Shown here: positions 6,952 to 28,487 of the stretch, piece by piece
Position numbering within the stretch: position 1 is the first letter of the stretch
Layout of the letters: each line of letters starts with the position of its first letter
Assembly (NCBI GenBank): GCA_965203555.1
Contig: CBDBCY010000004.1
Location: forward strand, 2,026,007 to 2,090,006
Direction of reading: 5' to 3'
DNA from: Acidimicrobiia bacterium
GTDB taxonomy: Bacteria; Actinomycetota; Acidimicrobiia; Spongiisociales; ZC4RG35
Length of the DNA: 64,000 bases
Program-made: the position numbers and the translations under genes
Notes under the pieces: model-generated
Databases searched by the model: none
What the model saw: only the letters and a program-made list of their open reading frames with translations
What the model was told of the DNA's origin: nothing

Positions 6952-7653
6952 TCAGGACTCCAATTCGATGCCTCCGAACAGGCAGGTCCCGGTTATCGTG
7001 AGCCGGCCTGCGGCGGTGCCGGGAGACGGTGGGGAACGATCATCGTCGACGCCGCCGAATAAATTGGTGGTTCGAACATCAACGATCCAACCGTCGGGGA
7101 CGCGAATCGAAACGCCGCCGAATACCGCCGTGACGTCCAGGGTGGCTTCGCCGGCGGCGAGGCCCGCGTCCAGCAGGTTTAACTTGGAACCACCGAACAC
7201 GCAGGTAATCCGGCCGCCCGAGAAGTTGTGATCCGTGACTCTTCGTCTGTCTTCTCTGAAGACGGTGGTGACGTCCAATTCGCCCGGTACGGAATTGTCG
7301 TCAAGATAGGGTTCGGGCGCCTGTCGGGCCCTTTTCCTCTTCCGGCTCAACAGCATCTTTGCTCCCACCAGGATCAGGACCACCGGCCAGAACCGCCAGA
7401 TGTCCCCAATGGTGTACTCCCAAACATCCTGTGTATCCAGGAGGAAGAACACGCCCAAGGCGATCAGCACCAGGCCCCCGAACCAGGAGCGGTTCCGTGC
7501 CATGTTCCAGAGTCCCACCGCGATCAGGATGGCGGGCCACCATCCACCCCACGGGATGTTCCAATCGGTGAGATTCTCCAAAAGGAACACGACACCGATG
7601 ACGAGGAACGCCAATCCGACGACAACTCGGCGGCCTCGATCAGATTTTGCCAT
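6952..7653 (-). CDS. LiaF-like (DUF2154/toast-rack) membrane protein
   Basis: N-terminal Trp-rich TM helices (DWNIPWGGWWPAILIAVGLW) and a C-terminal repetitive beta-solenoid segment (FGG...FGG...FGG). The start is ATG 7653 (MAKSDRGRR...) with AAGGAG 8 nt upstream. Confidence 0.6.
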   Translation of the reverse strand: MAKSDRGRRVVVGLAFLVIGVVFLLENLTDWNIPWGGWWPAILIAVGLWNMARNRSWFGGLVLIALGVFFLLDTQDVWEYTIGDIWRFWPVVLILVGAKMLLSRKRKRARQAPEPYLDDNSVPGELDVTTVFREDRRRVTDHNFSGGRITCVFGGSKLNLLDAGLAAGEATLDVTAVFGGVSIRVPDGWIVDVRTTNLFGGVDDDRSPPSPGTAAGRLTITGTCLFGGIELES

Positions 7654-7803
7654 CTCTTCTCCTTGTCTCCTGTTTCTTCCGGCCGATGGTAGGGGAAGCA
7701 GAGCACAACATAATCGGGGGATGACCGCGCGGGCGGACTCGGGCAAGCGCCGTTCTCAACCCCTGCCTTTGCTTGAAGGCAGGCCAAAAAGAGTGGCAAA
7801 ATC

Positions 7804-7847
7804 TTTTGTAAAGGTGTTTGACAAATAGGTTGTAGTGCACTTACACT
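7804..7847 (+). promoter_or_regulatory. Candidate sigma70-type promoter (TTGACA 7818-7823, TACACT 7842-7847) overlapped by inverted repeat TTTGTAAA-N5-TTTGACAAA (7804-7825)
   Basis: An AT-rich patch in an otherwise 65% GC window, sitting 75 bp upstream of the ROK regulator and its operon. The near-palindrome (8 of 9 positions) overlaps the -35 box. Confidence 0.4.
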
Positions 7848-7922: not shown

Positions 7923-9128
7923 GTGATCGAAGAGTCGGGTTCCGGCATGCTTCGACTCCGAAACGGTCAGGCCGTTTTCGACCACTTTGTCGAAGCCGGC
8001 AGCCAAACCATCTCCCGGGCCGAACTTGCCCGCCTGACCGGACTGTCAAAGCCCACGGTGAACGCGCTGGTGTCCGACCTGGAGAAGTCGGGAGTGGTGA
8101 AACTGATTCCCTCCGTCCAGACCCGCGGCCGGATCGGTAGGCCGGCGGCTTCTTACCAATTGGCGGCTGACGCGGCCATGGTGGTGGGTGTCGACATGGG
8201 AGCAACGAAGACCCTGGTGGGAGTCGCGGATCTGCTGGGAGAGGTGATAGCCGTGGAGCGGATCGAGACCGCACCCCACGCAAGGGCGGCGGTTGACGGG
8301 GTGGTGGCCACCACACGTCGTCTGCTGGAGGGCCTTGGGGAGCGGGCTTGCCGGCTCGAGGGCGCCTGTGTAGGAGTTCCGGGCGTCTACCGGCCCGAGT
8401 TGGACCGAGTGGAAATGGCGCCCAACCTGCCGGGGTTCGGGGATCTGGCGATCGCGGCGGAGTTGTCGAGGCAACTGGGGATTCCGGTGAGCATTGAAAA
8501 CGACGTCAATCTGGCCACTGTGGGAGAGGCGAATGCCATGACCGGGGAGGGGGTAAGGGATTTTGCGGCCATCTCGATCGGAACCGGGATCGGTATGGGG
8601 ATGGTCCTGGACGGGGAACTTTATAGAGGCGCCCATGGGGCGGCCGGCGAGATCGGGTCGGTAAAGCTTCCCCGGGTGGGCGGTGACGTGTTTCACGCTC
8701 TCACGCTGGAGGACGTGGCGTCGGCGCCGGCTATCCGCAAACTGTTTCACCGAGCGGTCGAGGCCGGGCATCGTACCGGTTTGAACGGTGACGTCGACGT
8801 GCCCGCCATTTTCTCCGCTTCGGCCCAGGGGGACGAGGCAGCGAGGGCGGCGCTTCGCATAGCGGCCGACTCGGTCGCTTTTGCAACGTCCTACTTCTGC
8901 TGGGTAAATGACCCCGCCCTGGTGGTGTTCGGGGGAGGCGTAGGCGCCAATCCCGTTTTTGTGGAGGCGGTAAGAGCGCGGATCGGACGCTACCTGACGG
9001 TGGTTCCGGAACTGGTGCCTTCCACTATCGGTGGACAAGCCGCATTTTTGGGGGCGGTCTCCACGGCGCTCTCCTCGGTGCACAAGTCGTTGGTCACCAG
9101 GCGACTGGGACGAAGGAGCGGGAGATGA
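7923..9128 (+). CDS. ROK family transcriptional regulator (N-terminal wHTH + sugar-kinase-like domain)
   Basis: HTH segment ISRAELARLTGLSKPTVNALVSDLEKSGVV followed by the ROK fold (MVVGVDMGATKT..., GIGMGMVLDGELYRGAHGAAGEIG). Start uncertain: TTG 7884, GTG 7923 or ATG 7944. Confidence 0.8.
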   Translation: MIEESGSGMLRLRNGQAVFDHFVEAGSQTISRAELARLTGLSKPTVNALVSDLEKSGVVKLIPSVQTRGRIGRPAASYQLAADAAMVVGVDMGATKTLVGVADLLGEVIAVERIETAPHARAAVDGVVATTRRLLEGLGERACRLEGACVGVPGVYRPELDRVEMAPNLPGFGDLAIAAELSRQLGIPVSIENDVNLATVGEANAMTGEGVRDFAAISIGTGIGMGMVLDGELYRGAHGAAGEIGSVKLPRVGGDVFHALTLEDVASAPAIRKLFHRAVEAGHRTGLNGDVDVPAIFSASAQGDEAARAALRIAADSVAFATSYFCWVNDPALVVFGGGVGANPVFVEAVRARIGRYLTVVPELVPSTIGGQAAFLGAVSTALSSVHKSLVTRRLGRRSGR

Positions 9129-10384
9129 AGAACGCGGCGGCCGTCATCGCCGCCGCGGTCGATGCCGACTCTCTGGTCGACCTGGTCCGGGATGCGGTGC
9201 GGATTCCCAGCATCACCGCGGATGAAGGGCGTTTCGCCGATTGGGTGAGAAGCCGGCTGGAAGAGGGTTGCTGGCACGAGGTCGATCAGGTGGAGGTGGA
9301 GCGGGGCCGCCCGAATGTGTATTCACGGGCAGGCGCCGGAGAGCATGGAACCCGGTCCCTGGTGCTGGCCGGGCACCTGGACACTGTCCATGCCGAAGAC
9401 TGGACACAGGAGTGGAGAGGCTCTGATCGTGACGATCCGTTCGCCGGTCAGGTTGTCGACGGGGAGATTTGGGCGAGGGGAGTAACCGACCAGAAGGGAG
9501 GGATCTGCTCCATCATCGAAGCGGTTCGGGCGATCTATCGGGCCGGATACCGACTGAGGGGGTCGGTGATCGGATTGTTCGTATGCGATGAGGAGTCCGG
9601 CCAGCCGGGAAGCGGGGTCTCCCTGGGGATGCGAGCCGCAGTCAAGGAGCTCTTGGAAGGCTCTGGTAGCCCGCCCGACTTTGCGATCTACACAGAGCCC
9701 ACCACCGGCGCCATCTACACCGCCCAGATGGGATTTCTGATAGCCGACATCACCCTGGTGGGCAAGTCTGCCTATTTTGGCAGGCCCGAACTGGGAGTGG
9801 ACGCGCTGAAGGCAGGGCACGCCCTGCTCGGTGCTCTGTGGGATCACAACGAGACGCTGTCTACGGGAGAAGCCCACCACCTGCTGGGAGAGCGGTTCCT
9901 GCTGGTGACCACGGTCGGGTCGGGGGGTAACATCGCCGTGCCCGGAAAGTTCGAACTGTCGCTCATTCAAAAGTTCCTGCCCGGGGATGACCTCGATGCG
10001 GCGGCCACGGCCTTGCGGGAGATCACCGCCGGAGTCGCCGAAGAGCACGGGGTCTGTTCCGAGGTGGTCTTCTCCGCTCCGAGAGATCACTCGGTGGGGG
10101 GTACCCCCGATGAGATATCGGCTAATCATCCGGGTGTGCTTGAGTTGGCCGGCGCCATCGAAGCGACCGGCGGCCGGCAGGCGAGAATCGAAGGAGCGCC
10201 CTACTGGTCGGAGAAACCGATGCTTCGGTCGGCAGGCATTCCAGGCGTCTACTTCGCGGCAGGTGATATCGCCACCTGTCACACACCTTTTGAACGACTA
10301 CCGATAGAGGATTTCGTGTCTTTGACCCGTGCCCTGGCCTACTTCGTGGCGTCGTGGTGCGGGGTGGAGAAGTCCGCAACCTAG
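9125..10384 (+). CDS. M20 family metallopeptidase (ArgE/DapE/dipeptidase-like)
   Basis: M20 signatures (LAGHLDTVH, VTDQKGG, FVCDEESG) and ATGA overlap with the ROK gene. Confidence 0.85.
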   Translation: MKNAAAVIAAAVDADSLVDLVRDAVRIPSITADEGRFADWVRSRLEEGCWHEVDQVEVERGRPNVYSRAGAGEHGTRSLVLAGHLDTVHAEDWTQEWRGSDRDDPFAGQVVDGEIWARGVTDQKGGICSIIEAVRAIYRAGYRLRGSVIGLFVCDEESGQPGSGVSLGMRAAVKELLEGSGSPPDFAIYTEPTTGAIYTAQMGFLIADITLVGKSAYFGRPELGVDALKAGHALLGALWDHNETLSTGEAHHLLGERFLLVTTVGSGGNIAVPGKFELSLIQKFLPGDDLDAAATALREITAGVAEEHGVCSEVVFSAPRDHSVGGTPDEISANHPGVLELAGAIEATGGRQARIEGAPYWSEKPMLRSAGIPGVYFAAGDIATCHTPFERLPIEDFVSLTRALAYFVASWCGVEKSAT

Positions 10385-10392
10385 GAGGAACC

Positions 10393-12597
10393 ATGAAAGG
10401 AACCCGCAAATACAAACGCAATACATCCGCAAGGTGGCTCATAACCGGTCTGGTGGCAGTGCTCAGCCTGGTTGCGGCGGCTTGCGGCGACGATGCCGAG
10501 GGCGAAACCACTACTACCCGGGCCGCCGCCGAAGCCACCACTACCCAAGCACCTGCTACGACGGAAGCTCCTCCAGAGCCTGTGGCGCCGGTTACTCAGG
10601 GGCCTGGTGGTGAGGAGGCTACCGCGTCGGGTGAGATTGTTTTGAGTGGTGATGAGATTGCGCAGGTGCAGTCTGGGGGGTATACGGCGGCTTTGCTTTG
10701 GCATACGGCGGGTGCTTTCACCGATGCGGTGAGTCAGGGTGCTCGGGATGCTTTTGCCGAGTTGGGTATTGAGGTGATTGCCGAGACGAATGCTCAGTTT
10801 GATGCTGCTCAGCAGGCCAATGATGTGGAGACTGTGTTGGCGCAGGATCCTGATGTCATTATCAGTTTGGTGATTGATCCGGTGTCGGGCGCGGAGGCGT
10901 TCCGTCCTGCGGTCGAGGCCGGGGTGCAGTTGGTGTTCTTGAGCAATGTGCCCGAGGGCTATGTGCACGGTGTCGATTATGTGGGGGTGGTGACCGATGA
11001 TCTGGCTGCGATGGGGATGGCGGCTGCGGATTTGTTGGCTGATGCGTTGGGCGGCTCCGGGGAGGTGGGTTTCATCTTTCATGATGCTGCCTATTACGTG
11101 ACCAATCAGCGTGATCAGGCGTTCAAGACTTGGATCGAGCAGCGTTATCCGGGGATCGAGATCGTTTCTGAGCAGGGGTTGGCTGATCCGGCTGCTGCTG
11201 AGGAGATCGCGGCTACGTTGTTGACGCGCAATCCTGATCTTGATGGTATTTATGCGCCGTGGTCGGCTGGTCCGGCCGACGGGGTGTTGGCTGCTTTGCG
11301 GGCGGCTGGTGCTTCTGATGTGGCGGTGGTGACTTTGGATCTGGATACCAATGTTTCGTTGGACTTGGTGGAAGGCGGGAATGTGGTTGGTATCGCGGCG
11401 GATGAGGCGTATGCGCTGGGACGGACCATGGCGTTGGAGGGTGCTTACGGTCTGTTGGGCAAGGACGCTCCTCCGTTTACGGTGGTACCGGCGATCGCAG
11501 TGACCGCTGACAACATCGTGGATGCCTACCGCCGGTCACTGGCCACCGACCCACCTCCCGAAGTCATGGCCGCACTCGGCGAGTCCGTGCCTGTGGCGCC
11601 GGTTACTCAGGGGCCTGGTGGTGAGGAGGCTACCGCGTCGGGTGAGATTGTTTTGAGTGGTGATGAGATTGCGCAGGTGCAGTCTGGGGGGTATACGGCG
11701 GCTTTGCTTTGGCATACGGCGGGTGCTTTCACCGATGCGGTGAGTCAGGGTGCTCGGGATGCTTTTGCCGAGTTGGGTATTGAGGTGATTGCCGAGACGA
11801 ATGCTCAGTTTGATGCTGCTCAGCAGGCCAATGATGTGGAGACTGTGTTGGCGCAGGATCCTGATGTCATTATCAGTTTGGTGATTGATCCGGTGTCGGG
11901 CGCGGAGGCGTTCCGTCCTGCGGTCGAGGCCGGGGTGCAGTTGGTGTTCTTGAGCAATGTGCCCGAGGGCTATGTGCACGGTGTCGATTATGTGGGGGTG
12001 GTGACCGATGATCTGGCTGCGATGGGGATGGCGGCTGCGGATTTGTTGGCTGATGCGTTGGGCGGCTCCGGGGAGGTGGGTTTCATCTTTCATGATGCTG
12101 CCTATTACGTGACCAATCAGCGTGATCAGGCGTTCAAGACTTGGATCGAGCAGCGTTATCCGGGGATCGAGATCGTTTCTGAGCAGGGGTTGGCTGATCC
12201 GGCTGCTGCTGAGGAGATCGCGGCTACGTTGTTGACGCGCAATCCTGATCTTGATGGTATTTATGCGCCGTGGTCGGCTGGTCCGGCCGACGGGGTGTTG
12301 GCTGCTTTGCGGGCGGCTGGTGCTTCTGATGTGGCGGTGGTGACTTTGGATCTGGATACCAATGTTTCGTTGGACTTGGTGGAAGGCGGGAATGTGGTTG
12401 GTATCGCGGCGGATGAGGCGTATGCGCTGGGACGGACCATGGCGTTGGAGGGTGCTTACGGTCTGTTGGGCAAGGACGCTCCTCCGTTTACGGTGGTACC
12501 GGCGATCGCAGTGACCGCTGACAACATCGTGGATGCCTACCGCCGGTCACTGGCCACCGACCCACCTCCCGAAGTCATGGCCGCACTCGGCGGATAA
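10393..12597 (+). CDS. Sugar ABC transporter substrate-binding lipoprotein (PBP type I, RbsB-like) carrying an exact in-frame tandem duplication of its binding domain
   Basis: AGGAGG is followed by ATG 10393. The signal and lipobox read MKGTRKYKRN...LVAAAC. Each repeat unit is a complete periplasmic-binding-protein type I domain. The track start at 10354 is unlikely. Confidence 0.8.
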   Translation: MKGTRKYKRNTSARWLITGLVAVLSLVAAACGDDAEGETTTTRAAAEATTTQAPATTEAPPEPVAPVTQGPGGEEATASGEIVLSGDEIAQVQSGGYTAALLWHTAGAFTDAVSQGARDAFAELGIEVIAETNAQFDAAQQANDVETVLAQDPDVIISLVIDPVSGAEAFRPAVEAGVQLVFLSNVPEGYVHGVDYVGVVTDDLAAMGMAAADLLADALGGSGEVGFIFHDAAYYVTNQRDQAFKTWIEQRYPGIEIVSEQGLADPAAAEEIAATLLTRNPDLDGIYAPWSAGPADGVLAALRAAGASDVAVVTLDLDTNVSLDLVEGGNVVGIAADEAYALGRTMALEGAYGLLGKDAPPFTVVPAIAVTADNIVDAYRRSLATDPPPEVMAALGESVPVAPVTQGPGGEEATASGEIVLSGDEIAQVQSGGYTAALLWHTAGAFTDAVSQGARDAFAELGIEVIAETNAQFDAAQQANDVETVLAQDPDVIISLVIDPVSGAEAFRPAVEAGVQLVFLSNVPEGYVHGVDYVGVVTDDLAAMGMAAADLLADALGGSGEVGFIFHDAAYYVTNQRDQAFKTWIEQRYPGIEIVSEQGLADPAAAEEIAATLLTRNPDLDGIYAPWSAGPADGVLAALRAAGASDVAVVTLDLDTNVSLDLVEGGNVVGIAADEAYALGRTMALEGAYGLLGKDAPPFTVVPAIAVTADNIVDAYRRSLATDPPPEVMAALGG
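10579..12592. repeat. Perfect direct tandem repeat, 2 x 1,011 bp (10579-11589 and 11590-12592), in frame
   Basis: Every line I compared between the two units is identical when offset by exactly 1,011 nt. The unit encodes PVAPVTQGPGGEEATAS...PPEVMAALG(ESV). The first ~880 bp of each unit use T/G-ending codons (ttg, gat, ggt, gct, att), unlike the C/G-ending host bias; the last ~130 bp revert to host usage. Confidence 0.9.
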
Positions 12598-12640
12598 CCT
12601 TCCATGAACAGCTGATCGCATAGGGAAACGGTCGCAAGAG

Positions 12641-13654
12641 ATGAGAGCCCATGTCCTGGCCGGCGTCGCCACCCGGTTGAGGCAGGCATGGGCCAGACAG
12701 AGCGACGACGGCGGGTTTCGACGTTACGTGGTCTATTTGGCCTTCGTTTCGATTCTCGCCGTCTTCGCTCTCATGCTGTGGGACGATGGTTTCCTGAGTT
12801 GGTCGAATCTTTTGAACATCGGCCGCCAGGCAGCGCCGATCGCGGTCATGGCGGTGGGTATGGCCTTCGCCCTGGCCTCGGCGGAGATAGATCTTTCGAT
12901 CGGATCGACCGTGGCGCTCTCCTCGTTGGTTGCCGCAGTAGTGGTCGGCGACCATGGATTCCTCATCGGAGCGCTGGCGGCGGTGGCCGTGGGTGCACTG
13001 GTGGGGCTGGCGAACGGCCTGATCACCGTCAAGATACGGATCCCATCCTTCCTGGTGACGCTGGGGATGCTGGGGATCATCAGCGGGATTGCCCGCAACA
13101 TGAACAATCTGCAGTCGATGCCGATCAGAAACGACGCCTTCTCCGCCCTGTTCGGCGCCGGGTCGCTGGGTCCTGTCTCGTCTTTGGTGATCTGGACCGC
13201 GGTGGCCTTTGCCTTGGGCCACTTTGCACTGCACCATCTGCGGTGGGGAAGGCATGTGCTCGCCACGGGGGCCAATCGGGCGTCGGCCAAAGCGGCCGGC
13301 CTCAATACCGACCGGATTCGGATCAGCGCCCTGGTGGTCAGTTCGGTGGCTGCCTCCTTCGCCGGGGTGCTGCTGGCTGGGCGTCTGGCCATCGGCCGCC
13401 ACGACCTGGGAGAGAACGATCTGCTCACCGTGATTGCCGCGGTGGTGATCGGTGGTACCAGTTTGTTCGGCGGACGCGCGTCCATCGCCGGCGCGGTGAC
13501 GGGCGCCCTGATCATGGCGATGCTCAACAATGGATTGATTCTGATGGGCCTCGAGGTGGCGGACCAGTTGATCGCCCGGGGGCTCATCATCATTGTGGCG
13601 GTGGCTCTGAGCATGAGGGCGCCGTCGGAAAGCGTGGGTGACGATGTTCCTTGA
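12641..13654 (+). CDS. Sugar ABC transporter permease (RbsC/branched-chain-sugar type)
   Basis: Ten-TM-like hydrophobic profile with conserved RbsC-type segments (GIDLSIGS, VIGGTSLFGGR). Confidence 0.85.
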   Translation: MRAHVLAGVATRLRQAWARQSDDGGFRRYVVYLAFVSILAVFALMLWDDGFLSWSNLLNIGRQAAPIAVMAVGMAFALASAEIDLSIGSTVALSSLVAAVVVGDHGFLIGALAAVAVGALVGLANGLITVKIRIPSFLVTLGMLGIISGIARNMNNLQSMPIRNDAFSALFGAGSLGPVSSLVIWTAVAFALGHFALHHLRWGRHVLATGANRASAKAAGLNTDRIRISALVVSSVAASFAGVLLAGRLAIGRHDLGENDLLTVIAAVVIGGTSLFGGRASIAGAVTGALIMAMLNNGLILMGLEVADQLIARGLIIIVAVALSMRAPSESVGDDVP

Positions 13655-14846
13655 ATCTCTGATCGGAAGGAACCGGGCCTTTCTGGAGGCCGCGGTACGG
13701 CTTCACCAGGAAAACCGGATTCCGGCCAACAGTTATGTGCTTGACCTGGACGCGGTGGAGTCGAACGCTCGCCTCATGACAGCTGAGGCTCACCGCCGTG
13801 GCTTGACGGTGTATGCCATGAGCAAACAGGTCGGACGGGCCCCGGGAGCGCTTGACGCGATCACCAGGGGTGGGGCAGACGGTTATGTGGCGGTCGACAT
13901 GGGATGCGCCCGGCCCATTGCCGCCAACGGACACGCAATCGGCAATCTCGGACATCTGGTGCAGATCCCGCGAGCCGAAGCGGCCGAGGCTGCGAGCCTG
14001 GCCCCGGAGTATTGGACCATCTTCTCCCGCAACAAGGCGGTTGAGGCTTCACGGGCAGTAGCAGCCCAGGGACGCAGGCAAAAGGTGCTATTGCGGATTT
14101 GGGAACAGGGCGATGTCTTCTATCCGGGCCACGAGGGCGGGTTTCACCTTGATGAACTCTGCCAGGCGATCGACTTCGTCAACGGTCTGCGGGGATTGCA
14201 ATTCGCAGGACTCACCACCTTTCCGGCCCTGCTTTTTGACGGGGCGGCGAAAAAGGTGAACCCCACTGCCAATGTCGAAACGCTGGCTCGGGGGGTGGAG
14301 GCTGCTCTCGGCCACTTGGGCTCGGGCTTTGCCATCGAAGTCAACGCTCCCGGGACCACCTCCACGGCGGTGCTGGATGTGCTGGCAGAGGTTGGCGCCA
14401 CCCAGGTGGAACCGGGGCACGGCCTAACCGGCACCACCCCTTTGCATGCGGTGGAGGAGCTTCCCGAACAGCCTGCAGTGCTGTACCTGACGGAGGTGGC
14501 CCACGTTCATCAGGGAGTGCCCCTGTGTTTTGGAGGGGGGTTCTATGTGGATCCGGTGTTCGAGCCTTATCCAACCACCGTTGTGGCTGCCGCCGGGCCA
14601 GAGGATGTGAGCCGGCAGCGGGTGCCGATCGACATGCCGGATCCGGCCGGTATCGACTATTACGCGCGGCTCCACCCGGAGGGTCGGGTGCTGCGGGAGG
14701 GCGACACCGTTATCGCCGGCTTCCGCATCCAGGCTTTCGTCACCCGCTCTCTGGTGGTGGGCGTGACCGGCGTCCGCGCCGGCGCCCCGGTGGTGGCCGG
14801 GATCTGGAATGTGGAAGGGGCGCCGGTCTCCTGGGGTGGCGGATGA
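13638..14846 (+). CDS. PLP-dependent alanine-racemase-fold (fold-type III, YhfX-like) enzyme; putative amino-acid or amino-sugar racemase or dehydratase
   Basis: TIM-barrel N-terminal racemase-like segment (YVLDLDAVESNARLM, MSKQVGRAPGALD) and a beta C-terminal domain. It overlaps the permease 3' end and is ATGA-coupled to the downstream ATPase. The start is GTG 13638 or ATG 13644. Confidence 0.55.
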   Translation: MTMFLESLIGRNRAFLEAAVRLHQENRIPANSYVLDLDAVESNARLMTAEAHRRGLTVYAMSKQVGRAPGALDAITRGGADGYVAVDMGCARPIAANGHAIGNLGHLVQIPRAEAAEAASLAPEYWTIFSRNKAVEASRAVAAQGRRQKVLLRIWEQGDVFYPGHEGGFHLDELCQAIDFVNGLRGLQFAGLTTFPALLFDGAAKKVNPTANVETLARGVEAALGHLGSGFAIEVNAPGTTSTAVLDVLAEVGATQVEPGHGLTGTTPLHAVEELPEQPAVLYLTEVAHVHQGVPLCFGGGFYVDPVFEPYPTTVVAAAGPEDVSRQRVPIDMPDPAGIDYYARLHPEGRVLREGDTVIAGFRIQAFVTRSLVVGVTGVRAGAPVVAGIWNVEGAPVSWGGG

Positions 14847-15610
14847 CGGCGCCTGCTCTCTCGGTGCGCAACATGTCCAAGTCGTTTCGGGCCGTGCAGG
14901 CCCTGGACGATGTGTCGTTGGACCTGCGCCCCGGTCGGGTTACGGGACTACTGGGAGACAACGGCGCCGGTAAGTCCACCCTGGTCAAATGCATCGCCGG
15001 GGTGTACCAGGCGGATGCGGGGACGATCAGTATTGATGGAGCCGTCCATCGGATCTCGTCTCCGGATGCGGCGCGCACCCTGGGCGTGGAGACCGTACAT
15101 CAGAATCTTTCGCTGATAGACAGCCTGAATGTGGTGGAGAACCTGTTCTTGAACCGGGAATACACGCGGGGCGGTCGTTTCGGCGCCAGGATCGGCTTCT
15201 TGAACAAGAGGCGAATGCATAGAGAGTGCAAAGCGACCCTGGCCAGGCTCGACATTGCCATTCCCTCGATGCGCCGACCGGTTGGTCTGCTTTCGGGAGG
15301 ACAGCGCCAGGCCATCGCGATCGGCCGGGCAGTGGCATGGGGACAACGGATCGTGCTCTTGGACGAACCCGCTGCCGCCCTGGGAGTGGAACAGGCGCAA
15401 AGGGTCATGGATCTCATTCTTTCCCTGCGAGACGCAAGGGTGGCTGTTCTGCTGATCACTCACAACATGGATCGCGTCACCGCAGTTTGTGACAATGCCG
15501 TAATTCTGCGTCAGGGCCGCAAGGCTGCCGAGGTTGAAGTCAGCCGGGTGAGCAAGGATGACTTGGTGGCCTTCATAACCGGGGCCAAATCTGATCAACA
15601 ACCGGCCTGA
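14843..15610 (+). CDS. Sugar ABC transporter ATP-binding protein (single NBD)
   Basis: Walker A GDNGAGKST, signature LSGGQRQ, Walker B LLDEPAAAL and an H-loop. ATGA overlap with the upstream gene. The track ORF start at 14525 is a wrong upstream extension. Confidence 0.85.
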   Translation: MTAPALSVRNMSKSFRAVQALDDVSLDLRPGRVTGLLGDNGAGKSTLVKCIAGVYQADAGTISIDGAVHRISSPDAARTLGVETVHQNLSLIDSLNVVENLFLNREYTRGGRFGARIGFLNKRRMHRECKATLARLDIAIPSMRRPVGLLSGGQRQAIAIGRAVAWGQRIVLLDEPAAALGVEQAQRVMDLILSLRDARVAVLLITHNMDRVTAVCDNAVILRQGRKAAEVEVSRVSKDDLVAFITGAKSDQQPA

Positions 15611-15668
15611 AGGGACTGCTTCGCTCTACACCCATGACGAGAAGCTGTCTGTCGGAGGCGCCGCTCGG

Positions 15669-16406
15669 ATGGAGGTAATCGTGGAACCGGATGGCGCCGG
15701 CGTTACGCGCACCGCGGCCGACCTGGTGCAGGAGTACCTGTGCGCCACGAGAGAGCCGGCCCTGGGCCTGGCCACCGGCGGGTCCGTTGCAGCCCTTTAC
15801 CGCGAATTGGTGCTCCGATACCGGCAAGGCCGGTTGGATTTTGGCAGGGCGCGGGCCTTTTTGTTGGACGAGTATGTGGGGCTGGGGCGCTCGCATCCGC
15901 AGCGATACGCCAATGTCATTCTGAACCAGTTGGCAAGACATGTCGGCCTCGATCCTCATCGTGTTCGCGGACCCGACGGCGACGCTCCTGATTTGGCGGA
16001 GGAGTGTTCTCGCTACGAGCACCTGGTATGCGGCGCCGGAGTGGGATTGCAGATTCTCGGAGTCGGGCGCAACGGTCACCTGGCTTTCAACGAACCTGGC
16101 TCTTCCCTCGAGTCCCGTACGCGAGTGGTGGAGTTGGCCGAGACCACCAGGGCCGACAACGCCCGGTTCTTTCCCAGTCCCGCAAACGTGCCCTTCCTGG
16201 CCATCACCCAGGGTTTGGCCACCATCAGCCAAGCGGCGCATCTGTTGGTATTGGCCACCGGATCGAACAAGGCTGCAGCTGTGCGGGCAACGCTGGAGGG
16301 AACGGTCACTTCTGCTGTTCCGGCTTCGGCCCTGCGACTCCATCCACGAGTCACGTTGCTCTTGGATCCGCCGGCTGCCCGGCTAACTCGATTCGCTCTG
16401 CCCTGA
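15669..16406 (+). CDS. nagB: Glucosamine-6-phosphate deaminase/isomerase family (NagB/6-phosphogluconolactonase fold)
   Basis: LGLATGGS, AFLLDEYVGL and LQILGVGRNGHLAFNEPGSS motifs; 245 aa. Confidence 0.8.
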   Translation: MEVIVEPDGAGVTRTAADLVQEYLCATREPALGLATGGSVAALYRELVLRYRQGRLDFGRARAFLLDEYVGLGRSHPQRYANVILNQLARHVGLDPHRVRGPDGDAPDLAEECSRYEHLVCGAGVGLQILGVGRNGHLAFNEPGSSLESRTRVVELAETTRADNARFFPSPANVPFLAITQGLATISQAAHLLVLATGSNKAAAVRATLEGTVTSAVPASALRLHPRVTLLLDPPAARLTRFALP

Positions 16407-20867: not shown

Positions 20868-21050
20868 CTCGGCCAGTGTCTCGTCATAAAGGGCGGATGA
20901 AATGACAGCGGGCGACAGGGTGTCTCCTCCAATGGTTGGCCTCGGTCTCGGTCCAGTTTAAGGTCCACGCGAAAATCTATCTATCTGTGACGGGCCTAAG
21001 GCTGAAGCACGCTCTTACCATTCCAGAGAAGTGGCTGAAAGGAGCCTGAT

Positions 21051-22223
21051 ATGAGCAACTTGACCGCGGCGGCTGATGCCGTCCTTGACGGGGTGACATC
21101 GGGAAGCCCACGGGTACCCGGCGTCGTGGCTTTGGCAACCAACCGTGACGGCAATATCTACGAAGGCGCGAGAGGGGTCCGCTCTCTTGGCAACGGCGCG
21201 GCGATGACCACCGACACCATTTGCGCGATCTTCTCGACCACCAAGGCCATCGGTGGTACCGCCTGCCTGCAGTTGGTGGAGGAAGGCCGGCTCGACCTTG
21301 ACGCACCGGCCAAGAACTACACCCCCGACATAGGGGAACTGCAGGTACTGGACGGTTTCGACGACAACGGGGACCCGATGCTCCGGCCCCCGAAACGTGA
21401 TGTGACAACCAGGATGCTGCTCCTCCACACCGCAGGCCTGTCCTACTTTTTCTTCAACGAAACATACAATCGGTTGGCGCAGGACCACGGCCAGGTCAGC
21501 CCGGTCACCTCTTCCAAGGAATCCCTTATGACGCCCCTGCTTTTCGATCCGGGAGATCAGTGGGAGTACGGAACGAATATCGACTGGGCCGGTCAGGTGG
21601 TGGAAGGGATCACCGGCAAGCGCCTGGGCGAGGTGATGCAGGAGCGGATCTTCGAACCCCTGGGGATGGATTCCACGTCCTTTGACCTGAGCGATGAGAT
21701 GCGGAGTCGGATGGCTTTGATACATCACCGGGGCGACGACGGAGAGTTGACGCCTCTCGACTTCGAGTTGCCGCCGGATCCCGAGGTGCACATGGCCGGT
21801 CACGGCTTGTACTCGACCGTTGAGGACTACATGAAGTTCATTCGTATGTGGCTGAACGACGGCATGGGTCCCGGCGGGCAGGTCCTCGCCAGGGAGACCG
21901 TGGAGATGGCAGTCCAGAACGGGTTGGGAGAGATGAAGATCAAGGGTCTTCCCGCAGTGGACCCGTTTCTCACCAACTACGCCGAGTTCTTCCCCGGCAT
22001 GCCCAAGTCCTGGGCGTTGAGCTTCATGATCAATGACGAGGAGGCTCCGACCGGCCGGCCGGCGGGCGCTCTGGCCTGGGCGGGCCTGGCCAACCTCTAC
22101 TACTGGATCGATCGCCAGAACGATGTTGGGGGTTTCTGGGCCACCCAGATCTTCCCGTTCGCCGATGGGACATCGGTTGGCGGTTTCATGGACTTCGAGA
22201 CCGCGATCTACAACAACCTGTAG
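21051..22223 (+). CDS. Serine hydrolase of the beta-lactamase/class-C esterase family
   Basis: S-x-x-K motif in FSTTKAIGG; approximately 390 aa; RBS AAAGGAG. Confidence 0.85.
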
Positions 22224-22340
22224 GGAGACCTGCACAAGCTCACATTGATTAAAGAGATGGCTCCCCAGGTCATGCCGGGAGCCATCTCCTCATAAAACCC
22301 TCTTGAGTTGTGGCCGACTGCGTCCCTGTGGGGAACCCGG

Positions 22341-23287
22341 CTAGCGGTAGCCGCCGCCTCGCCGGAGGCTGTCGAGCGTTACGGCGATGATCAGTATGGC
22401 GCCGCGGACTACCGACTGCCAGTAGATCTGCACTTGCAGGAGGATCAGTCCGTTCTGGACGACCCCGATTATCAACAGTCCCAGGAGGGTTCCCAAAAGG
22501 CCTCCCCGTCCTCCGCTCAGGGCGATGCCGCCCAGCAGTACTGCGGCGATGATGTCCAACTCGGCGCCGTTCAGGGCGCTTGGCAGGGCCGTTCCGCTCT
22601 GGGAAGTGAGCATCAGACCCGCCAACCCCGCCAGGCAGGCCTGGGCCACGTAGGTCCAGCCTCGCAGGCGGTCGACCCTGATGCCGACGTTGCGGCAAGC
22701 TTCGCTGTTTCCGCCCACGGCGTAGAGGTGATTGCCTGCCACGGTGAATCGCATGAAGCACATTCCCAGCACCACCACCGCCAGGAACAACCAGACGGTT
22801 ATGGGGGCTCCCAGCCAGGACCCTCTTCCCAGTTCGCTCCACGCGTTGACCCCGATCACGATGTTGTCGCCGCCCGTGGAAACGAAGGCCAAGCCCCGAT
22901 AGAAGAGCAGGGTTCCCAGGGTGGCGATGATCGGGTTGATTCTGAACTTGACGATCAACAGGGCATTGAACGCGCCCAGCACTCCTGCGGCGGCTACTCC
23001 CAACACACCAACCAGGACGCTGTTGACGTCCAGGGTGATCAGGCTGGCAGTGACCATACCCGCCACTGCCGCCACTGCCGCCATGGACAGGTCCAATCCT
23101 CCGGCGATCATCACCACCGTCAGACCGATAGCGATCAGACCTCTGATAGAAATGGCCTGTCCGATATTGATGAAGTTGCGGGTCGTGAAGAAAAACTCGG
23201 ACTGCCAACTGAATAGGGCAATCATCAACAACAGGGTGATGAGCAGACCGATCAGCGTCCAGTTGTCCTGCCTCTTGAAAACCGAGA

Positions 23288-23291
<4 letters not shown>
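22341..23291 (-). CDS. Sugar ABC transporter permease (RbsC-like)
   Basis: MISVFKRQDNWTLIGLLITLLLMIALF... with a polytopic profile. The start at 23291 overlaps the ATPase stop (ATGA). Confidence 0.85.
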
Positions 23292-24061
<770 letters not shown>

Positions 24062-24089
24062 ACCTCTCTACCGATAAGGAAGGGAGGTA

Positions 24090-24122
24090 CTCGGCGTACG
24101 AACCGGGGCTCGAAACGCCGAG
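24090..24122 (-). other. Intercistronic stem-loop (8-bp perfect stem CTCGGCGT/ACGCCGAG, 17-nt loop) between the binding-protein and ATPase genes
   Basis: It lies in the 85-bp gap of the minus-strand operon. Such hairpins commonly stabilise the upstream binding-protein transcript segment. Confidence 0.35.
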
Positions 24123-24146
24123 TCCTCTTTTGTTAGTTGGCTGTCT

Positions 24147-26180
24147 CTATCCGGGATAGAGGTCGAAGACGTTGTCCCGGGTTACGGGTGAGACCGAGGG
24201 TATTAGCCGTTCGGGAACGGTCTTTCCTTCGATCAGGTCGACGATGGCCGGCACCAGGTAGGTCCCGTAGCGCTCGGGGAAGTAGGAGATGGTGGCTTTG
24301 AACACAGACTCCTCGTCAGAGCGCTCCCGCAAATCCACCAGCGCCTCGTCGGAGGCGCCCAGGCTGGCAGCGGCCGCGTGACCCAGGTAGCCACTCTGCT
24401 CCAAAGCCAGCGCGCAGTCCACGCCGGGCTGGTCGCTGTGGCCGAAGCACAGCACGTGCTGTGCGCCGGGGTTGGCAGTCGCCCAGGTGGTCACGTTGGG
24501 AAGGGTGTCGGTCAGGCCCTCGGTGGGGATGTCGTGGATGTTCTCGTCCGGGATGTCGAACGATTCCCGCACGCCGTCTCGGGCGCCGTCGGCGCGGGCC
24601 TTGTGGACCGGCACATCCGGAGTCCACACCAACAGCAGATGGGTGTCCTCGGGCGCCCAACCCTGCTCTTGGGCGAAGCCGGCCAGATATCGGCCGGCCT
24701 CCAGCGCCGCGTTGTAGTTGTCCGGGCCGAAGGCCACGCATCCGGGGTGGGGTCCGTCGTAGGAGACACATGGAATCCCGGCGTCGTGGAAGATGCCGGC
24801 GATCAGTTCTTCGGTGCCGGCGATCCAGTTGGCGAAGATCACTCCGTCAACCTCTTGGGTTACCAGCAGGTTGGAGCACTCCACGGTCCGCTCCTGGTCG
24901 TAGGCGTTGTCGCAGTAGACGATCTCCACGCCCATCTCGGCGGCGATGGCGTTGATGTTGTCGGTCACGCTGTCCGTAAACGGGATACCCGACAGGCCGT
25001 CGCCGTAACCGATCCTGAACGCTCCGGAAGCTTCTCGAATCACGGCTTCGTACTCATCCTCCTCAGCCATGGCTGCTTCGTCCAGTTCGCCTCCCGGATA
25101 CAGTTCCTCGACGTTGTCACGGGTGACAGGCTCCACCGAGGGGATGATCCTCTCGGGCAGGTCGGTGCGGTCTTCAATGAGATCGACGATGATGGGCACC
25201 AGATACTGTCCGTAACGCTCGGGGAAGTATGAGATAGTGGCCTTGAACACAGACTCGTCATTGCCACGCTCGCGCAGCTCCACGAGGGCTTCAGTGGATG
25301 CACCGGTTCCCGCGGCCGCGGCGTTGCCCAAGAAGCCGTTCTGTTCCAGGGCCAATCCGCAGTCGACGCCGGGCTGGTCGCTGTGGCCGAAGCACAGCAC
25401 ATGCTTGGCATCGGGGTTGGCGATCGACCAGGTGGTCACGTTGGGCAGTGTGTCGGTCAGGCCCTCGGTGGGAATGTCGTGGATGTTCTCGTCCGGGATG
25501 TTGAACGACTCCCGCACGCCGTCGGTGGCGCCGTCGGCCCGAGCCTTGTGGACCGGCACGTCCGGGGTCCACACGAGCAGCAGCTCAGTCTCTTCGGGCG
25601 CCCATCCCTGCTCAAGGGCGTACTGCGCCAGGAAGCGACCGGCGGCTACTCCGGCCTCGTAGTTGTCGGGGCCGAAGGCCACGCATCCGGGGTGGGGGCC
25701 GTCGTAGGAGACGCATGGAATCCCGGCATCGTGGAAGATATTGGAGATCAGTTCTTCGGTGCCGGCGATCCAGTTGGCGAAGATCACTCCGTCGACTTGT
25801 TGGGTTACCAGCAGGTTGGAGCATTCCACGGTCCGCTCCTGGTCGTAGGCGTTGTCGCAGTAGACGATCTCCACGCCCATCTCGGCGGCGATGGCGTTGA
25901 TGTTGTCGGTCACGCTGTCGGTAAATGGAATTCCCGACAGTCCGTCACCGTAACCGATCTTCCACGGTTGTTCGGCCGGGCGGATCACGGCTTCGTAGGG
26001 GCCGGAAGGCGCCTCTGGCTCCTCCTCCATTACCTCATCTTCGGGGGCCTCTTCAACCGCGGCGGCCGTGGTCTCCGGGGCGGCGGTGGTGCCAGGAGCC
26101 TCATCCTCGTCTCCCCCGCAGGCGGCCACCAATAGGGCAATGACCGCCACTCCAACTATCAGCTTGCGTGACATTCTCAA
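24147..26180 (-). CDS. ABC transporter substrate-binding lipoprotein with an internal, diverged tandem duplication of the binding domain
   Basis: MRMSRKLIVGVAVIALLVAAC lipobox. Two approximately 315-aa halves are about 85-90% identical (...IGYGDGLSGIPFTDSVTDNINAIAAEMGVEIVYCDNAYDQERTVECSNLLVTQ... appears twice). At the DNA level, blocks of 20-36 nt are identical about 950 bp apart. Confidence 0.8.
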   Translation of the reverse strand: MRMSRKLIVGVAVIALLVAACGGDEDEAPGTTAAPETTAAAVEEAPEDEVMEEEPEAPSGPYEAVIRPAEQPWKIGYGDGLSGIPFTDSVTDNINAIAAEMGVEIVYCDNAYDQERTVECSNLLVTQQVDGVIFANWIAGTEELISNIFHDAGIPCVSYDGPHPGCVAFGPDNYEAGVAAGRFLAQYALEQGWAPEETELLLVWTPDVPVHKARADGATDGVRESFNIPDENIHDIPTEGLTDTLPNVTTWSIANPDAKHVLCFGHSDQPGVDCGLALEQNGFLGNAAAAGTGASTEALVELRERGNDESVFKATISYFPERYGQYLVPIIVDLIEDRTDLPERIIPSVEPVTRDNVEELYPGGELDEAAMAEEDEYEAVIREASGAFRIGYGDGLSGIPFTDSVTDNINAIAAEMGVEIVYCDNAYDQERTVECSNLLVTQEVDGVIFANWIAGTEELIAGIFHDAGIPCVSYDGPHPGCVAFGPDNYNAALEAGRYLAGFAQEQGWAPEDTHLLLVWTPDVPVHKARADGARDGVRESFDIPDENIHDIPTEGLTDTLPNVTTWATANPGAQHVLCFGHSDQPGVDCALALEQSGYLGHAAAASLGASDEALVDLRERSDEESVFKATISYFPERYGTYLVPAIVDLIEGKTVPERLIPSVSPVTRDNVFDLYPG

Positions 26181-26327
26181 CCTTTCTCTCTTTCAACTGT
26201 GATGGTGACGAAAATGGTCTTCGTCAAACCGGAGTCAGGTACACCGCCGTATGACGGTATACCACCATTTCCGGTCAGAAAAATAGCCTAACCCCGCCTA
26301 TCCCTCAAAAGCCAACCTTGACGTTCA

Positions 26328-27627
26328 CTATTTTGGCCGCGAAATGCCTTCGGCATATTCGACCATGCTGGCGTTGACGGGATCTTCAAATTGAAATTCA
26401 CCAGGTTGCAGAGTGGCGACATCAACAGGCTGTCCTCCCCGAATTACCTCCCGCACCCGGCGAATGTGGCTTATGTCAGAGAGGGGGTTTCCCTCCGTAA
26501 TGAGAAGATCGGCCGCCTTCCCCTCCGCGAGAGTGCCGGTGAGGTGGTGCACGCCGAGGCGGCGACTTCCTTCCCGGGTGGCAGCCGTGAGGACTTGCGC
26601 CGGTGTGAGCCCGGACTTTGTCAACATCTGCAATTCGTCGTGGAGGCTGAAACCGGGGATCAAGTATGGCCAGGGCGCGTCGGTCCCCACGACGATGGGC
26701 ACGCCGGCTTCATAGAACTTGGGGATGACCCTTTGGATCTCTGCAACCGCCGCCATTCGGCCCCGGGATCCTTGCGGATCGTGCCGGTGGGGGAAGGCAT
26801 CCCAGCACTCACGAATCTTGTCGGGCACCCACCGCAGCCGCGGATCGGGCCGGGAGGCGAAGTGGCTGAGACGAGCCAGGCGATCCCAGACGATGACAGT
26901 GGGACATAGCGCCGTGTTCGCCTCGATCAGTGCTTTCGTTATGTCCTCCAGATCAGCCAGATGGGTGCCGTCGAGGGGGTGAATGATCCCGCTCAGGTGC
27001 TGAAGTTCGGCCACGCCCGCCCCGGCGGCTTCCAGCGCGTTCACCTCTCCCAGGTGGGCGACTACCGGCACCCCGTTTCTTCTCCCCGCTGCCACGGCCG
27101 CCTTGACCTGCTCCAGGTCCAGGTGAACGTAGAGCTTGATCTCGTTTACCCCGGCGGCGGCCAGCAGGTCGATCTTGGCGGCCACCGCCTCGGGATCGGC
27201 GTGGCCTTCTCCGAGGCGAGGCCAGTTGACGTGCTCACCGTCCAGAACCGGGCCGCAGCAGCGCACCCGGGGAGTCGGCCGGGGGTCGGCCGCAAGTCGG
27301 CTACGCAGCCCCAGTATCCAGTCAAGGTCGTTGCCGATGTCCCGCACCGTGGTCACACCGGCAGCCAGGAGAGCGGGAACCATCCACGAGGCCATGTGAA
27401 TGTGGGCATCGATCAGCCCGGGCATGAGGGTGCATCCCGGAAAGACCATACGGTCGACGTCACCTGGCAGGGTCCTGGCATCCGCCACTCCTTCGATCTT
27501 GCTCCCTGATATCACCAGGGCCTTCCCCGATTGAGGCTCGGAATCCGGTGGATTCCACACCAGGTCTGGAACCAGCGCCAAGCGCGGTGAGCGTGGGTGT
27601 TGGGAGGGAGGAGATCGATGTTGCATG
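26328..27627 (-). CDS. Metal-dependent amidohydrolase family protein
   Basis: PGLIDAHIHM (the HxH metal motif), VVAHLGE and VGTDAPW segments. The track ORF extends to 28265, but the first approximately 210 aa are low-complexity read-through. The start is ATG 27627 or more likely GTG 27515 (MISGSKIEG...), where codon bias begins. Confidence 0.75.
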
Positions 27628-27707
27628 CAGTGGACCCGGTTGTCAGCGAGATTTACCCTACCGGATGAGGACCGCAGAAGCCAGCCTCGCCCTAGCCTTC
27701 TGAGACA

Positions 27708-28487
27708 ATGACTGACGACCAACTCTCCTTGGGGGCGGGACTCTCGGGGCGCGGGGTGATAGTCACCGGCGCAGCCAGCGGGATCGGACGAGCGACTGCT
27801 CGTCTCGCCGCGGCTTGCGGGGCCCGGGTGTGTGGGGTGGACCTGAACGGTCCGGCCTTGCGGGCGGAGAAGGAGCAATGGGACGATCCCGGTCGTCATC
27901 TGGCAGTGGAGATCGACTTGACCGGCGACGATGCTCCTCACACGGTGGTTGAGACCGTGCTGGAGGAGTTCGGCGACCTGTGGGGACTGGTCCACTGCGC
28001 GGGAGTGCTGGTCCGCCGATCCAGCCCTGCCGAGGTGACCCGACAGGAATGGGATCTCCAGCACAGCGTGAACCTGAAAGCCTCCTTCTTCATCAACCAG
28101 GCAGTGGGCGAGGCGCTGAAAGCCCGCGGCGGGGGTGGGCGTATGATCACTCTCAGTTCGCAAGGGTGGTGGACGGGCGGAAGCCATGGTGCGGTGGTCT
28201 ATTCCGCTTCGAAGGGGGGCATCGTCTCCATGTGCCGCGGTCTGTCCACCTCTTACGCTCCCCACGGGATCATGGTGAACTCCATCGCGCCCGGGGTGGT
28301 GGACACCCCCATGCTGGGGATTGGACTAACTGAGGCCGATCTCGAGGCGATCGCCGCCTCCTGCCCCATGGGAAGATTGGCGAGGCCTGAGGAGATCGCC
28401 CAGGTTGCGGTGTTCCTGCTGTCCGCCCATGCCAGCTACATCTCGGCCGCCACCATCAATGTCAGCGGTGGTCTGCTCTTTTACTGA
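27708..28487 (+). CDS. Short-chain dehydrogenase/reductase (SDR)
   Basis: TGAASGIGRATA Rossmann motif and the YSASKGG catalytic motif; 259 aa. It is a paralog of the partial SDR at 63433. Confidence 0.85.
   Translation: MTDDQLSLGAGLSGRGVIVTGAASGIGRATARLAAACGARVCGVDLNGPALRAEKEQWDDPGRHLAVEIDLTGDDAPHTVVETVLEEFGDLWGLVHCAGVLVRRSSPAEVTRQEWDLQHSVNLKASFFINQAVGEALKARGGGGRMITLSSQGWWTGGSHGAVVYSASKGGIVSMCRGLSTSYAPHGIMVNSIAPGVVDTPMLGIGLTEADLEAIAASCPMGRLARPEEIAQVAVFLLSAHASYISAATINVSGGLLFY

Follow-up and report, generated by a model that had tools for sequence, protein, structure and literature searches.

What is a pyridoxal 5'-phosphate (PLP) enzyme of fold-type III doing between the permease and ATPase genes of a sugar importer? 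This question is raised by a locus of an Acidimicrobiia bacterium (GenBank assembly GCA_965203555.1; genome of 3.4 Mb, 95% complete), of which we analyzed a stretch of 64,000 nucleotides (contig CBDBCY010000004.1, positions 2,026,007 to 2,090,006), hereafter called the window. Seven co-directional genes at 7923-16406, called from the listing of open reading frames (ORFs) and from profile searches against Pfam and NCBIfam, encode a ROK-family regulator, an M20 metallohydrolase, a substrate-binding protein, a permease, the PLP protein, an ATPase and a NagB-type deaminase (Table 1). This order and placement had been given in an earlier interpretation made from the letters of the DNA (the sequence-only reading) and were borne out by ORFs and profiles. 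On balance, the operon probably serves the catabolism of an imported amino sugar under repression by the ROK protein; the sugar would probably be N-acylated at uptake. Its type can be described as amino-sugar catabolism that includes a so far undescribed PLP step. An amino-sugar substrate had already been proposed in the sequence-only reading and remains the best interpretation, based on the intact NagB, an exchange of NagB for NagB-II-like proteins in related operons and the conservation of the operon.

Judged by its profile matches, the PLP protein is a member of the YhfX family and not an alanine racemase. Both of its domains scored above the Pfam cut-offs (YhfX-like_C, PF21279, 75.2 versus 27; Ala_racemase_N, 52.4 versus 24.1). 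E. coli YhfX (b3381), a member of the same family, has a solved structure (4KBX) that matches the window protein at an E-value of 1e-69 over residues 1-390, and the AlphaFold model of the window protein (pLDDT 93) reaches a TM-score of 0.90 to 4KBX. The check with hidden Markov models (Ala_racemase_N/YhfX) that the sequence-only reading had suggested thus gives a YhfX-type assignment. That the protein is instead a housekeeping alanine racemase (Alr/DadX), placed by chance inside a transporter operon, is extremely improbable: while the 52 bits to Ala_racemase_N and several database records calling homologues "alanine racemase" would fit such an enzyme (the records on YhfX homologues carry automatic names only, either this one or those of YhfX-like clusters), the C-terminal domain is YhfX-like_C and not that of Alr, the NCBIfam search matched no family at an E-value of 1e-5 and no alr model, a canonical Alr is encoded elsewhere in the genome (G000:C4:187742, 216 bits), and the orthologous loci show a sugar-uptake and not a cell-wall context.

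The active site points in the same direction. Lys61, within an MSKQ motif, aligns with K34 of Alr (hhalign, alignment probability 83%) and is presumed to be the PLP lysine. Where Alr has its second catalytic base, which we take to be Tyr255 of the E. coli enzyme, the window protein has F296 (hhalign, probability 83%), and across 22 family members this position holds F, Y, I or L. Based on the wrong C-terminal domain, the missing alr match, the variable Tyr position and the canonical Alr elsewhere, an Alr/DadX identity was rejected. Residues H104, E256, H259, E284, H287, D338, Y339, Y340, R361 and R368 are invariant in the alignment of the YhfX family. After 4KBX, D-threonine aldolases and beta-hydroxyaspartate aldolase come next in structure (TM 0.65-0.70), followed by decarboxylases, alanine racemases (TM about 0.60) and D-serine dehydratases. 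Comparison by hhalign with the genome's own D-threonine-aldolase-like proteins covered the N-terminal barrel only (probabilities 87% and 12%), so that metal and base residues are not placeable, and the chemistry of YhfX is not readable from homology.

The last gene of the operon is, to judge from its alignments, a near-canonical glucosamine-6-phosphate deaminase and the only Glucosamine_iso gene of the genome. Its scores lie just below the equivalog cut-offs (TIGR00502, 224.7 versus 236.9; NF001684, 273 versus 326 bits), and its best structural match is B. subtilis NagB (2BKV, E-value 8e-53), with which it shares an Asn at the position of E. coli Asp141; a C-terminal allosteric region is absent. 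Aligned with E. coli NagB, it keeps Asp72, His143, Glu148, Arg172 and Lys208, of which the first three are presumably catalytic and the last two presumably phosphate ligands. Since the phosphate-binding residues are intact, a phosphorylated substrate is expected, and the suggestion of the sequence-only reading that this protein may act on a non-phosphorylated substrate is not supported.

The strongest single argument for the end of the route comes from related operons. NagB occupies the deaminase position in the marine clade, while the soil versions and genome G067 carry a protein with two SIS domains at the identical operon position; one distant relative has a diverged NagB-like gene. The two-SIS proteins best match NagB-II or the GlmS isomerase domain (131-224 bits), as compared with about 26 bits to FrlB and 28-45 bits to the GlmD model. 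NagB and NagB-II/GlmS-type SIS proteins have a single reaction in common, in which glucosamine-6-phosphate and fructose-6-phosphate plus ammonia are converted into each other. Because the two replace each other at one operon position, the route would end with the conversion of glucosamine-6-phosphate to fructose-6-phosphate.

These proteins also bear on a different substrate class named in the sequence-only reading, the glycated amino acids (Amadori or Heyns compounds). Here, import and phosphorylation of the sugar-amino-acid conjugate would be followed by deglycation through NagB or the SIS protein, which would set free the amino acid and a hexose-6-phosphate; the trimming of glycated peptides would fall to the M20 enzyme and the amino-acid part to YhfX. 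Deglycation of an N-substituted glucosamine-6-phosphate should chemically equal the NagB reaction, the E. coli yhfZYXW-php-yhfUTS cluster directly adjoins frlABCDR, and in some relatives the partner of YhfX is an APC permease, a PfkB kinase weakly resembling fructoselysine kinase, or an AP_endonuc_2 protein. However, the frl and gfr systems need a SIS deglycase of the FrlB or GfrE/F type and a FrlD-type kinase, whereas the present operon has NagB and no SIS protein, and the SIS proteins of its relatives score to NagB-II/GlmS and hardly to FrlB. The window NagB moreover comes near the equivalog with all catalytic residues kept, the importer is of the monosaccharide-type CUT2 class, and the PIG-L and CE4 de-N-acetylases of relatives point to N-acetyl sugars. 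Glycated amino acids are thus weakened as substrates, and we regard them as improbable.

The operon is conserved well beyond the window. The closest YhfX homologues are encoded in metagenome-assembled genomes of sponge-associated Acidimicrobiia, Candidatus Spongiisociaceae among them, and the sequencing runs that contain this DNA are sponge, coral and marine metagenomes. Among sponge- and coral-associated Acidimicrobiia, 15 of the 18 loci with full flanks show the complete seven-gene set in order, so the operon is conserved as a unit, a point on which the sequence-only reading had made its pathway depend. A profile-guided scan of metagenome contigs yielded 80 further loci, mostly from soil and sediment, with YhfX proteins 47-75% identical. 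The insertion of the PLP gene between permease and ATPase, noted as unusual in the sequence-only reading, is real and recurs: YhfX lies directly between the CUT2 permease and the ATPase in 41/53 metagenome loci with labelled neighbours on both sides, and the same order occurs in another actinobacterial family (L043). By these counts, the placement inside the transporter genes is ancient and conserved, and an arrangement recurring across so many genomes is not a chance neighbourhood.

The YhfX family itself is small and patchy, with 642 clusters at 50% identity, and was found in four of 401 sampled Actinomycetota genomes, the present one included. In the YhfX tree, the window protein falls within a well-supported clade of NagB-linked operons, while the E. 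coli type forms a well-supported clade of its own; the backbone is unresolved. Neighbours of the more distant YhfX loci comprise regulators, transposases and unrelated transporters, with no other recurrent partner except AP_endonuc_2 together with a GFO-type protein in two otherwise dissimilar loci. There, genes for an AP_endonuc_2 (xylose-isomerase-like) protein and a GFO_IDH_MocA oxidoreductase lie beside the YhfX module (L117:217-1865 and L026:1256-3354); this pair could represent an optional side branch of the pathway. In genome G298 (L045:5453-10724), the second gene downstream of a GH2 exo-beta-D-glucosaminidase that carries an Ig_GlcNase domain encodes a distant YhfX relative (35% identical); the gene between them codes for a 351-aa protein outside the known families, and transposase genes follow downstream.

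It could be assumed that the locus is an ordinary operon for N-acetylglucosamine (GlcNAc) or glucosamine from chitin or chitosan, with the M20 enzyme in NagA's place and YhfX as an accessory outside the carbon flux. Like canonical GlcNAc catabolism (NagC, NagK or a phosphotransferase system (PTS), NagA, NagB), it has a ROK-family regulator, a terminal glucosamine-6-phosphate deaminase as the closing gene, and steps of de-N-acylation and phosphorylation; the host sponges are reported to contain chitin, the distant relative just described lies beside an exo-beta-D-glucosaminidase, and no NagA above the cut-off was found in the genome. The two systems differ, however, in that the present operon has M20 instead of NagA, lacks the kinase, adds the PLP enzyme and uses a CUT2 importer whose binding protein is doubled. 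Of all operon members, YhfX is the most constant; it is located inside the transporter genes in most loci while every other role changes family, and a route from glucosamine would require just a kinase and a deaminase. Furthermore, genome G067 encodes a canonical NagA in addition to the SIS-type operon, so the module is probably not a plain GlcNAc route, an explanation we consider unlikely. Since the genome's only NagB is encoded here and NagA was not found, the operon is probably the main amino-sugar route of the symbiont, drawing on its host or community.

Taken as amino-sugar catabolism with a PLP step, the operon would work as follows. The doubled binding lipoprotein, with one permease and a single-domain ATPase, would import the sugar; the M20 hydrolase of the ArgE/DapE type would strip the N-acyl group and free the amine; and a sugar kinase would make the 6-phosphate, here in trans through a stand-alone ROK kinase or possibly the ROK regulator. 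The YhfX PLP enzyme, which would need a free amine, would then turn the intermediate into glucosamine-6-phosphate, from which NagB would release ammonia and fructose-6-phosphate. As kinase and deaminase suffice for glucosamine, YhfX must resolve a difference between the imported sugar and glucosamine. Since it stays constant while transporter, kinase, hydrolase and deaminase change family, its substrate is expected to be a sugar with a free amine, probably phosphorylated and one step away from glucosamine-6-phosphate.

Concerning the reaction itself, the candidate we rank first, though doubtfully, is a C2 epimerisation that would turn mannosamine, or mannosamine 6-phosphate, into the glucosamine form, which fits since PLP chemistry acts at the amine-bearing carbon. 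Our second guess concerns a 3-O-substituted glucosamine, at whose C3 a beta-elimination and re-addition would take place, for example to remove the lactyl ether of muramic acid; this is also allowed because the kindred aldolases and dehydratases handle beta-hydroxy amines. A peptidoglycan-derived amino sugar, as named in the sequence-only reading too, may be the substrate. Literature searches found no precedent in the fold-type-III class for either a C2 epimerase or a C3 elimination and re-addition. More broadly, we tentatively propose that YhfX might be the first fold-type-III PLP enzyme known to act on amino sugars (as a mannosamine-6-phosphate 2-epimerase or a PLP-dependent muramic-acid-6-phosphate etherase, for instance), in a route into glucosamine-6-phosphate that deacylates first and then reshapes the free amine. 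Such a route would occur widely among soil and marine bacteria and would account for the orphan E. coli yhf cluster as well; we hold this proposal to be less likely than not.

In relatives, the other steps are assigned to different, unrelated families. For the hydrolase, M20, PTE (Php-like), PIG-L, CE4 polysaccharide deacetylase, amidase, and esterase or alpha/beta hydrolase families were found, and loci L060 and L112 have no hydrolase. The window M20 protein contains the motifs GHLDTV (HxD), GVTDQKGG (D), CDEESG (DEE), YTEPT (E) and CHTPFE (H), which by analogy would supply metal ligands and catalytic residues. Its best NCBIfam match is TIGR01910 (148 bits versus a cut-off of 217.6), the named equivalogs (ArgE, DapE, YgeY and others) score far below their cut-offs, and the best matches in the Protein Data Bank (PDB) are DapE and ArgE. 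Transport is provided in relatives either by a CUT2 ABC system or by an APC amino-acid-type permease.

Regarding phosphorylation, the sequence-only reading had remarked that a kinase is missing. This holds for the present operon; the puzzle is local to this genome, though, as related operons encode ROK kinases (312-324 aa, no helix-turn-helix) or PfkB kinases, in many cases with translational coupling to YhfX, and a stand-alone ROK kinase is encoded elsewhere in the genome (G000:C4:2963575). A search of the genome for BadF-type kinases gave none. The ROK regulator, with an HTH_24/MarR_2 match at residues 30-78 of the longer frame in addition to its ROK domain, scores far below the cut-offs of the NagC and Mlc equivalogs. 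It keeps the DxGxT and ENDVN motifs, so a residual kinase activity is possible. The YhfX-linked ROK kinases score about equally to glucokinase, N-acetylmannosamine (ManNAc) kinase, allose kinase and GlcNAc kinase models, all far below cut-off, and therefore give no substrate information. In the alignment, neither the regulator nor the operon-linked ROK kinases of relatives have the zinc-binding Cys motif that usually comes after the GxxGExG element (here GAAGEIG); together they may represent a ROK subgroup of their own without zinc. The aligned proteins lacking the motif were the window regulator (7923-9128), L124:4603-5556, L117:7089-8027 and L109:643-1617.

Several points weigh against our interpretation of the operon and of YhfX. 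The nearest characterised folds of YhfX are D-threonine aldolases (TM about 0.66-0.70), with alanine racemases further off, and a classical two-base racemase mechanism is not supported, because the second-base position is variable. M20 enzymes of the ArgE/DapE type usually cleave N-acyl amino acids and not N-acyl sugars. The operon has no kinase gene, and in about 40% of the well-flanked metagenome loci no hydrolase and no deaminase is seen close to YhfX. Searches of the genome yielded no sialidase (BNR_2) or AGE, and NanE gave just a weak 28-bit match in a 415-aa frame, so this genome gives no support for sialic acid as a source of mannosamine; these absences do not count against the uptake of ManNAc released by other organisms. 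Finally, full-text literature searches (YhfX; yhfS/T/U/W; fold-type-III amino-sugar epimerases; PLP with mannosamine) returned no functional study and no YhfX-family enzyme with a known reaction.

The aldolase-like neighbours direct attention to oxidised amino sugars. In Pseudoalteromonas prydzensis, the oxidised chitin monomer GlcNAc1A is degraded by the ong pathway with OngB, OngC and KdgK, in which a D-aminoacylase is paired with a fold-type-III PLP deaminase that is a distant relative both of D-serine deaminases and of D-threonine aldolases (PMC9537276). The present operon shares with it an N-deacylase and a fold-type-III PLP enzyme for an amino-sugar-derived substrate; the kinship of OngC with these two enzyme groups is a further likeness. 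By analogy, the M20 enzyme would, like OngB, deacylate an N-acyl amino-sugar acid, and YhfX would, like OngC, act as a deaminating dehydratase or aldolase on the D-beta-hydroxy-alpha-amino acid so formed, giving a keto-deoxy acid or glycine plus erythrose (or erythrose 4-phosphate). Such a role would suit the closest folds of YhfX, namely D-threonine aldolases, beta-hydroxyaspartate aldolase and D-serine dehydratases, and the normal preference of ArgE/DapE-type M20 enzymes for N-acyl amino acids. It is also in line with the amino-acid (APC) permeases and PTE-type hydrolases of relatives, the PTE family including sugar-lactone-phosphate lactonases.

Nevertheless, a route of this kind has no role for a glucosamine-6-phosphate deaminase, yet NagB and the SIS NagB-II-like proteins interchange at one position. 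The associated kinases are of the ROK sugar-kinase type; none of those beside YhfX was recognisable as a 2-keto-3-deoxygluconate (KDG) kinase, and the PfkB kinases match models of KDG kinase weakly, far below cut-offs. An aldolase for 2-keto-3-deoxy-6-phosphogluconate (PF01081) was not found in the genome, and the His-containing motif of the genome's D-threonine-aldolase-like protein aligns, in a weak alignment, to T-F-P in YhfX. The ong system further differs in that OngB is an amidohydrolase-type D-aminoacylase and not an M20 enzyme, uptake is by an SSS symporter, and the route ends in KDG or KDG-6-phosphate via KdgK, with a RidA protein and no NagB (PMC9537276); neither an amidohydrolase nor a PfkB or RidA gene was detected in the present operon among ORFs and Pfam matches. 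Glucosaminate, which the sequence-only reading had brought up, is accordingly weakened by the SIS replacement and the missing aldolase, and catabolism of an oxidised amino sugar appears rather unlikely.

Returning to catabolism through glucosamine-6-phosphate, two further systems offer a comparison. The E. coli cluster yhfZY-yhfX-yhfW-php-yhfUTS resembles the present operon in that YhfX stands within a putative uptake and catabolic cluster, and the Php encoded there has counterparts in the PTE (Php-like) hydrolases that accompany YhfX in soil relatives. Its partners differ and comprise YhfT/U, Php, YhfW (a mutase), YhfS (a PLP protein of fold-type I) and PRD/PTS parts. An ABC importer, M20, ROK and NagB are all absent from it; its YhfX belongs to a separate clade, and the cluster is equally unassigned in function. 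The deacetylate-first chitin route of Thermococcus uses a PIG-L deacetylase, an exo-beta-glucosaminidase, a glucosamine kinase and the SIS deaminase GlmD. It follows the same logic of deacetylation before phosphorylation and subsequent deamination of glucosamine-6-phosphate, and relatives of the present operon employ PIG-L, a GH2 glucosaminidase and SIS deaminases; however, it has no PLP enzyme, and the SIS proteins found here score poorly to GlmD.

What is new here is the exchange of NagB and NagB-II at a fixed position, the intact phosphate site of NagB, and the finding that the structural neighbours of YhfX are aldolases and not racemases. For YhfX, an E. coli gene product with a solved structure, the comparative picture narrows the possible substrates. 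If the proposed pathway is true, PLP chemistry would gain a new reaction type and amino-sugar catabolism a new branch, which would matter for microbial and host amino-sugar turnover in soils, oceans and the holobionts of sponges and corals.

The importer shows the hallmark pair of the CUT2 class, a Peripla_BP_4 binding protein and a BPD_transp_2 permease. The permease scores 182 bits to AraH and 163 bits to RbsC, both below cut-offs, and in the models YtfR, AraG and RbsA it is the first half alone that the ATPase matches, without the fused double domain (about 500 aa) usual in ribose-type importers. The best PDB matches of the binding protein are sugar-binding proteins, with no pointer to an amino-sugar ligand. 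Its gene starts at ATG 10393 behind a strong Shine-Dalgarno sequence, encodes a signal peptide followed by a lipobox (VAAAC), and contains two exact in-frame copies of 1004 nt (10578-11581 and 11589-12592, period 1011 nt), so the product has two binding domains. Independent sequencing runs include a 67-nt contig across the junction of the copies, and in them the 1004-nt unit is covered at two to three times the depth of its flanks, which indicates that the duplication is real; the number of copies may vary between cells.

The same in-frame doubling occurs in seven related genomes (L002, L005, L010, L016, L017, L018, L019; period 1008-1017 nt), with copies 91.5-100% identical within a genome and 70-92% between genomes, while the close relatives L001, L004, L007 and L013 have a single copy. 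Such a pattern would be expected if the copies were homogenised again and again (concerted evolution) or if duplication and collapse recurred. Two successive binding-protein matches, 52-60% identical to that of the window and encoded by what may be fused or separate genes, were seen in the soil loci L059, L061, L095 and L119, so the doubling is not confined to the sponge clade. On its coding strand, the binding-protein gene (10500-12500) also has a GC skew of about +0.27 and an AT skew of about -0.29, a strong bias that sets it apart from its neighbours.

The seven genes are closely spaced. The 4-nt coupling overlaps described in the sequence-only reading (ATGA) exist at the ROK/M20 and YhfX/ATPase junctions; permease and YhfX overlap by 11 nt instead, and the remaining junctions are gaps of 8, 43 and 58 nt. 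The consensus scan gave only one promoter-like site in the region, TTGACA-18-TACACT. At its -35 hexamer lies a palindrome, TTTGTAAA-N4-TTTGACAAA, which is a candidate ROK operator. Alignment of the six closest genomes showed that this promoter and palindrome block is kept while the DNA around it diverges; the GTG start of the ROK gene at 7923 is kept in relatives as well. Contigs from an RNA library cover parts of 5/7 operon genes at at least 99% identity, with strand and level not readable from them, and give a weak hint of expression; the uncovered parts do not speak for silence.

Table 1. Coordinates of the YhfX operon, its upstream elements and the second CUT2 locus in the window.
Feature	Position	Strand	Evidence
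ROK-family regulator, winged helix and ROK sugar-binding domain, 401 aa	7923-9128	+	Pfam ROK, 137 bits
M20 metallohydrolase, ArgE/DapE deacylase type, 419 aa	9125-10384	+	Pfam Peptidase_M20, 85.8 bits
CUT2-type substrate-binding lipoprotein, two tandem binding domains	10393-12597	+	Peripla_BP_4 matched twice, 239 bits
ABC permease, ribose/arabinose type, 337 aa	12641-13654	+	BPD_transp_2, 114 bits
YhfX-family fold-type-III PLP protein, 400 aa	13644-14846	+	YhfX-like_C, 75.2 bits; Ala_racemase_N, 52.4 bits
ABC ATPase, single nucleotide-binding domain, 255 aa	14843-15610	+	ABC_tran, 101 bits
NagB, short non-allosteric B. subtilis type, 245 aa	15669-16406	+	TIGR00502, 224.7 bits
Promoter-like site, TTGACA-18-TACACT	7818-7847	+	consensus scan
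Imperfect inverted repeat TTTGTAAA-GGTG-TTTGACAAA, candidate ROK operator	7805-7825	+	overlaps -35 hexamer
Amidohydrolase, second CUT2 locus	26328-28265	-	
Doubled binding protein, second CUT2 locus, 677 aa	24147-26180	-	
Single-domain ATPase, second CUT2 locus	23288-24061	-	
Permease, second CUT2 locus	22341-23387	-	
ORF without Pfam match, second CUT2 locus, 406 aa	21015-22235	-	

Two neighbouring features complete the picture of the window. A gene for a LiaF-like membrane protein (LiaF-TM, LiaF-like_C; 6952-7746, minus strand) is transcribed in the direction leading away from the ROK gene, faces the promoter region of the operon with its start and adjoins the operon in the closest relatives too. 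Further downstream, a second, paralogous CUT2 locus occupies 21015-28265 on the minus strand.

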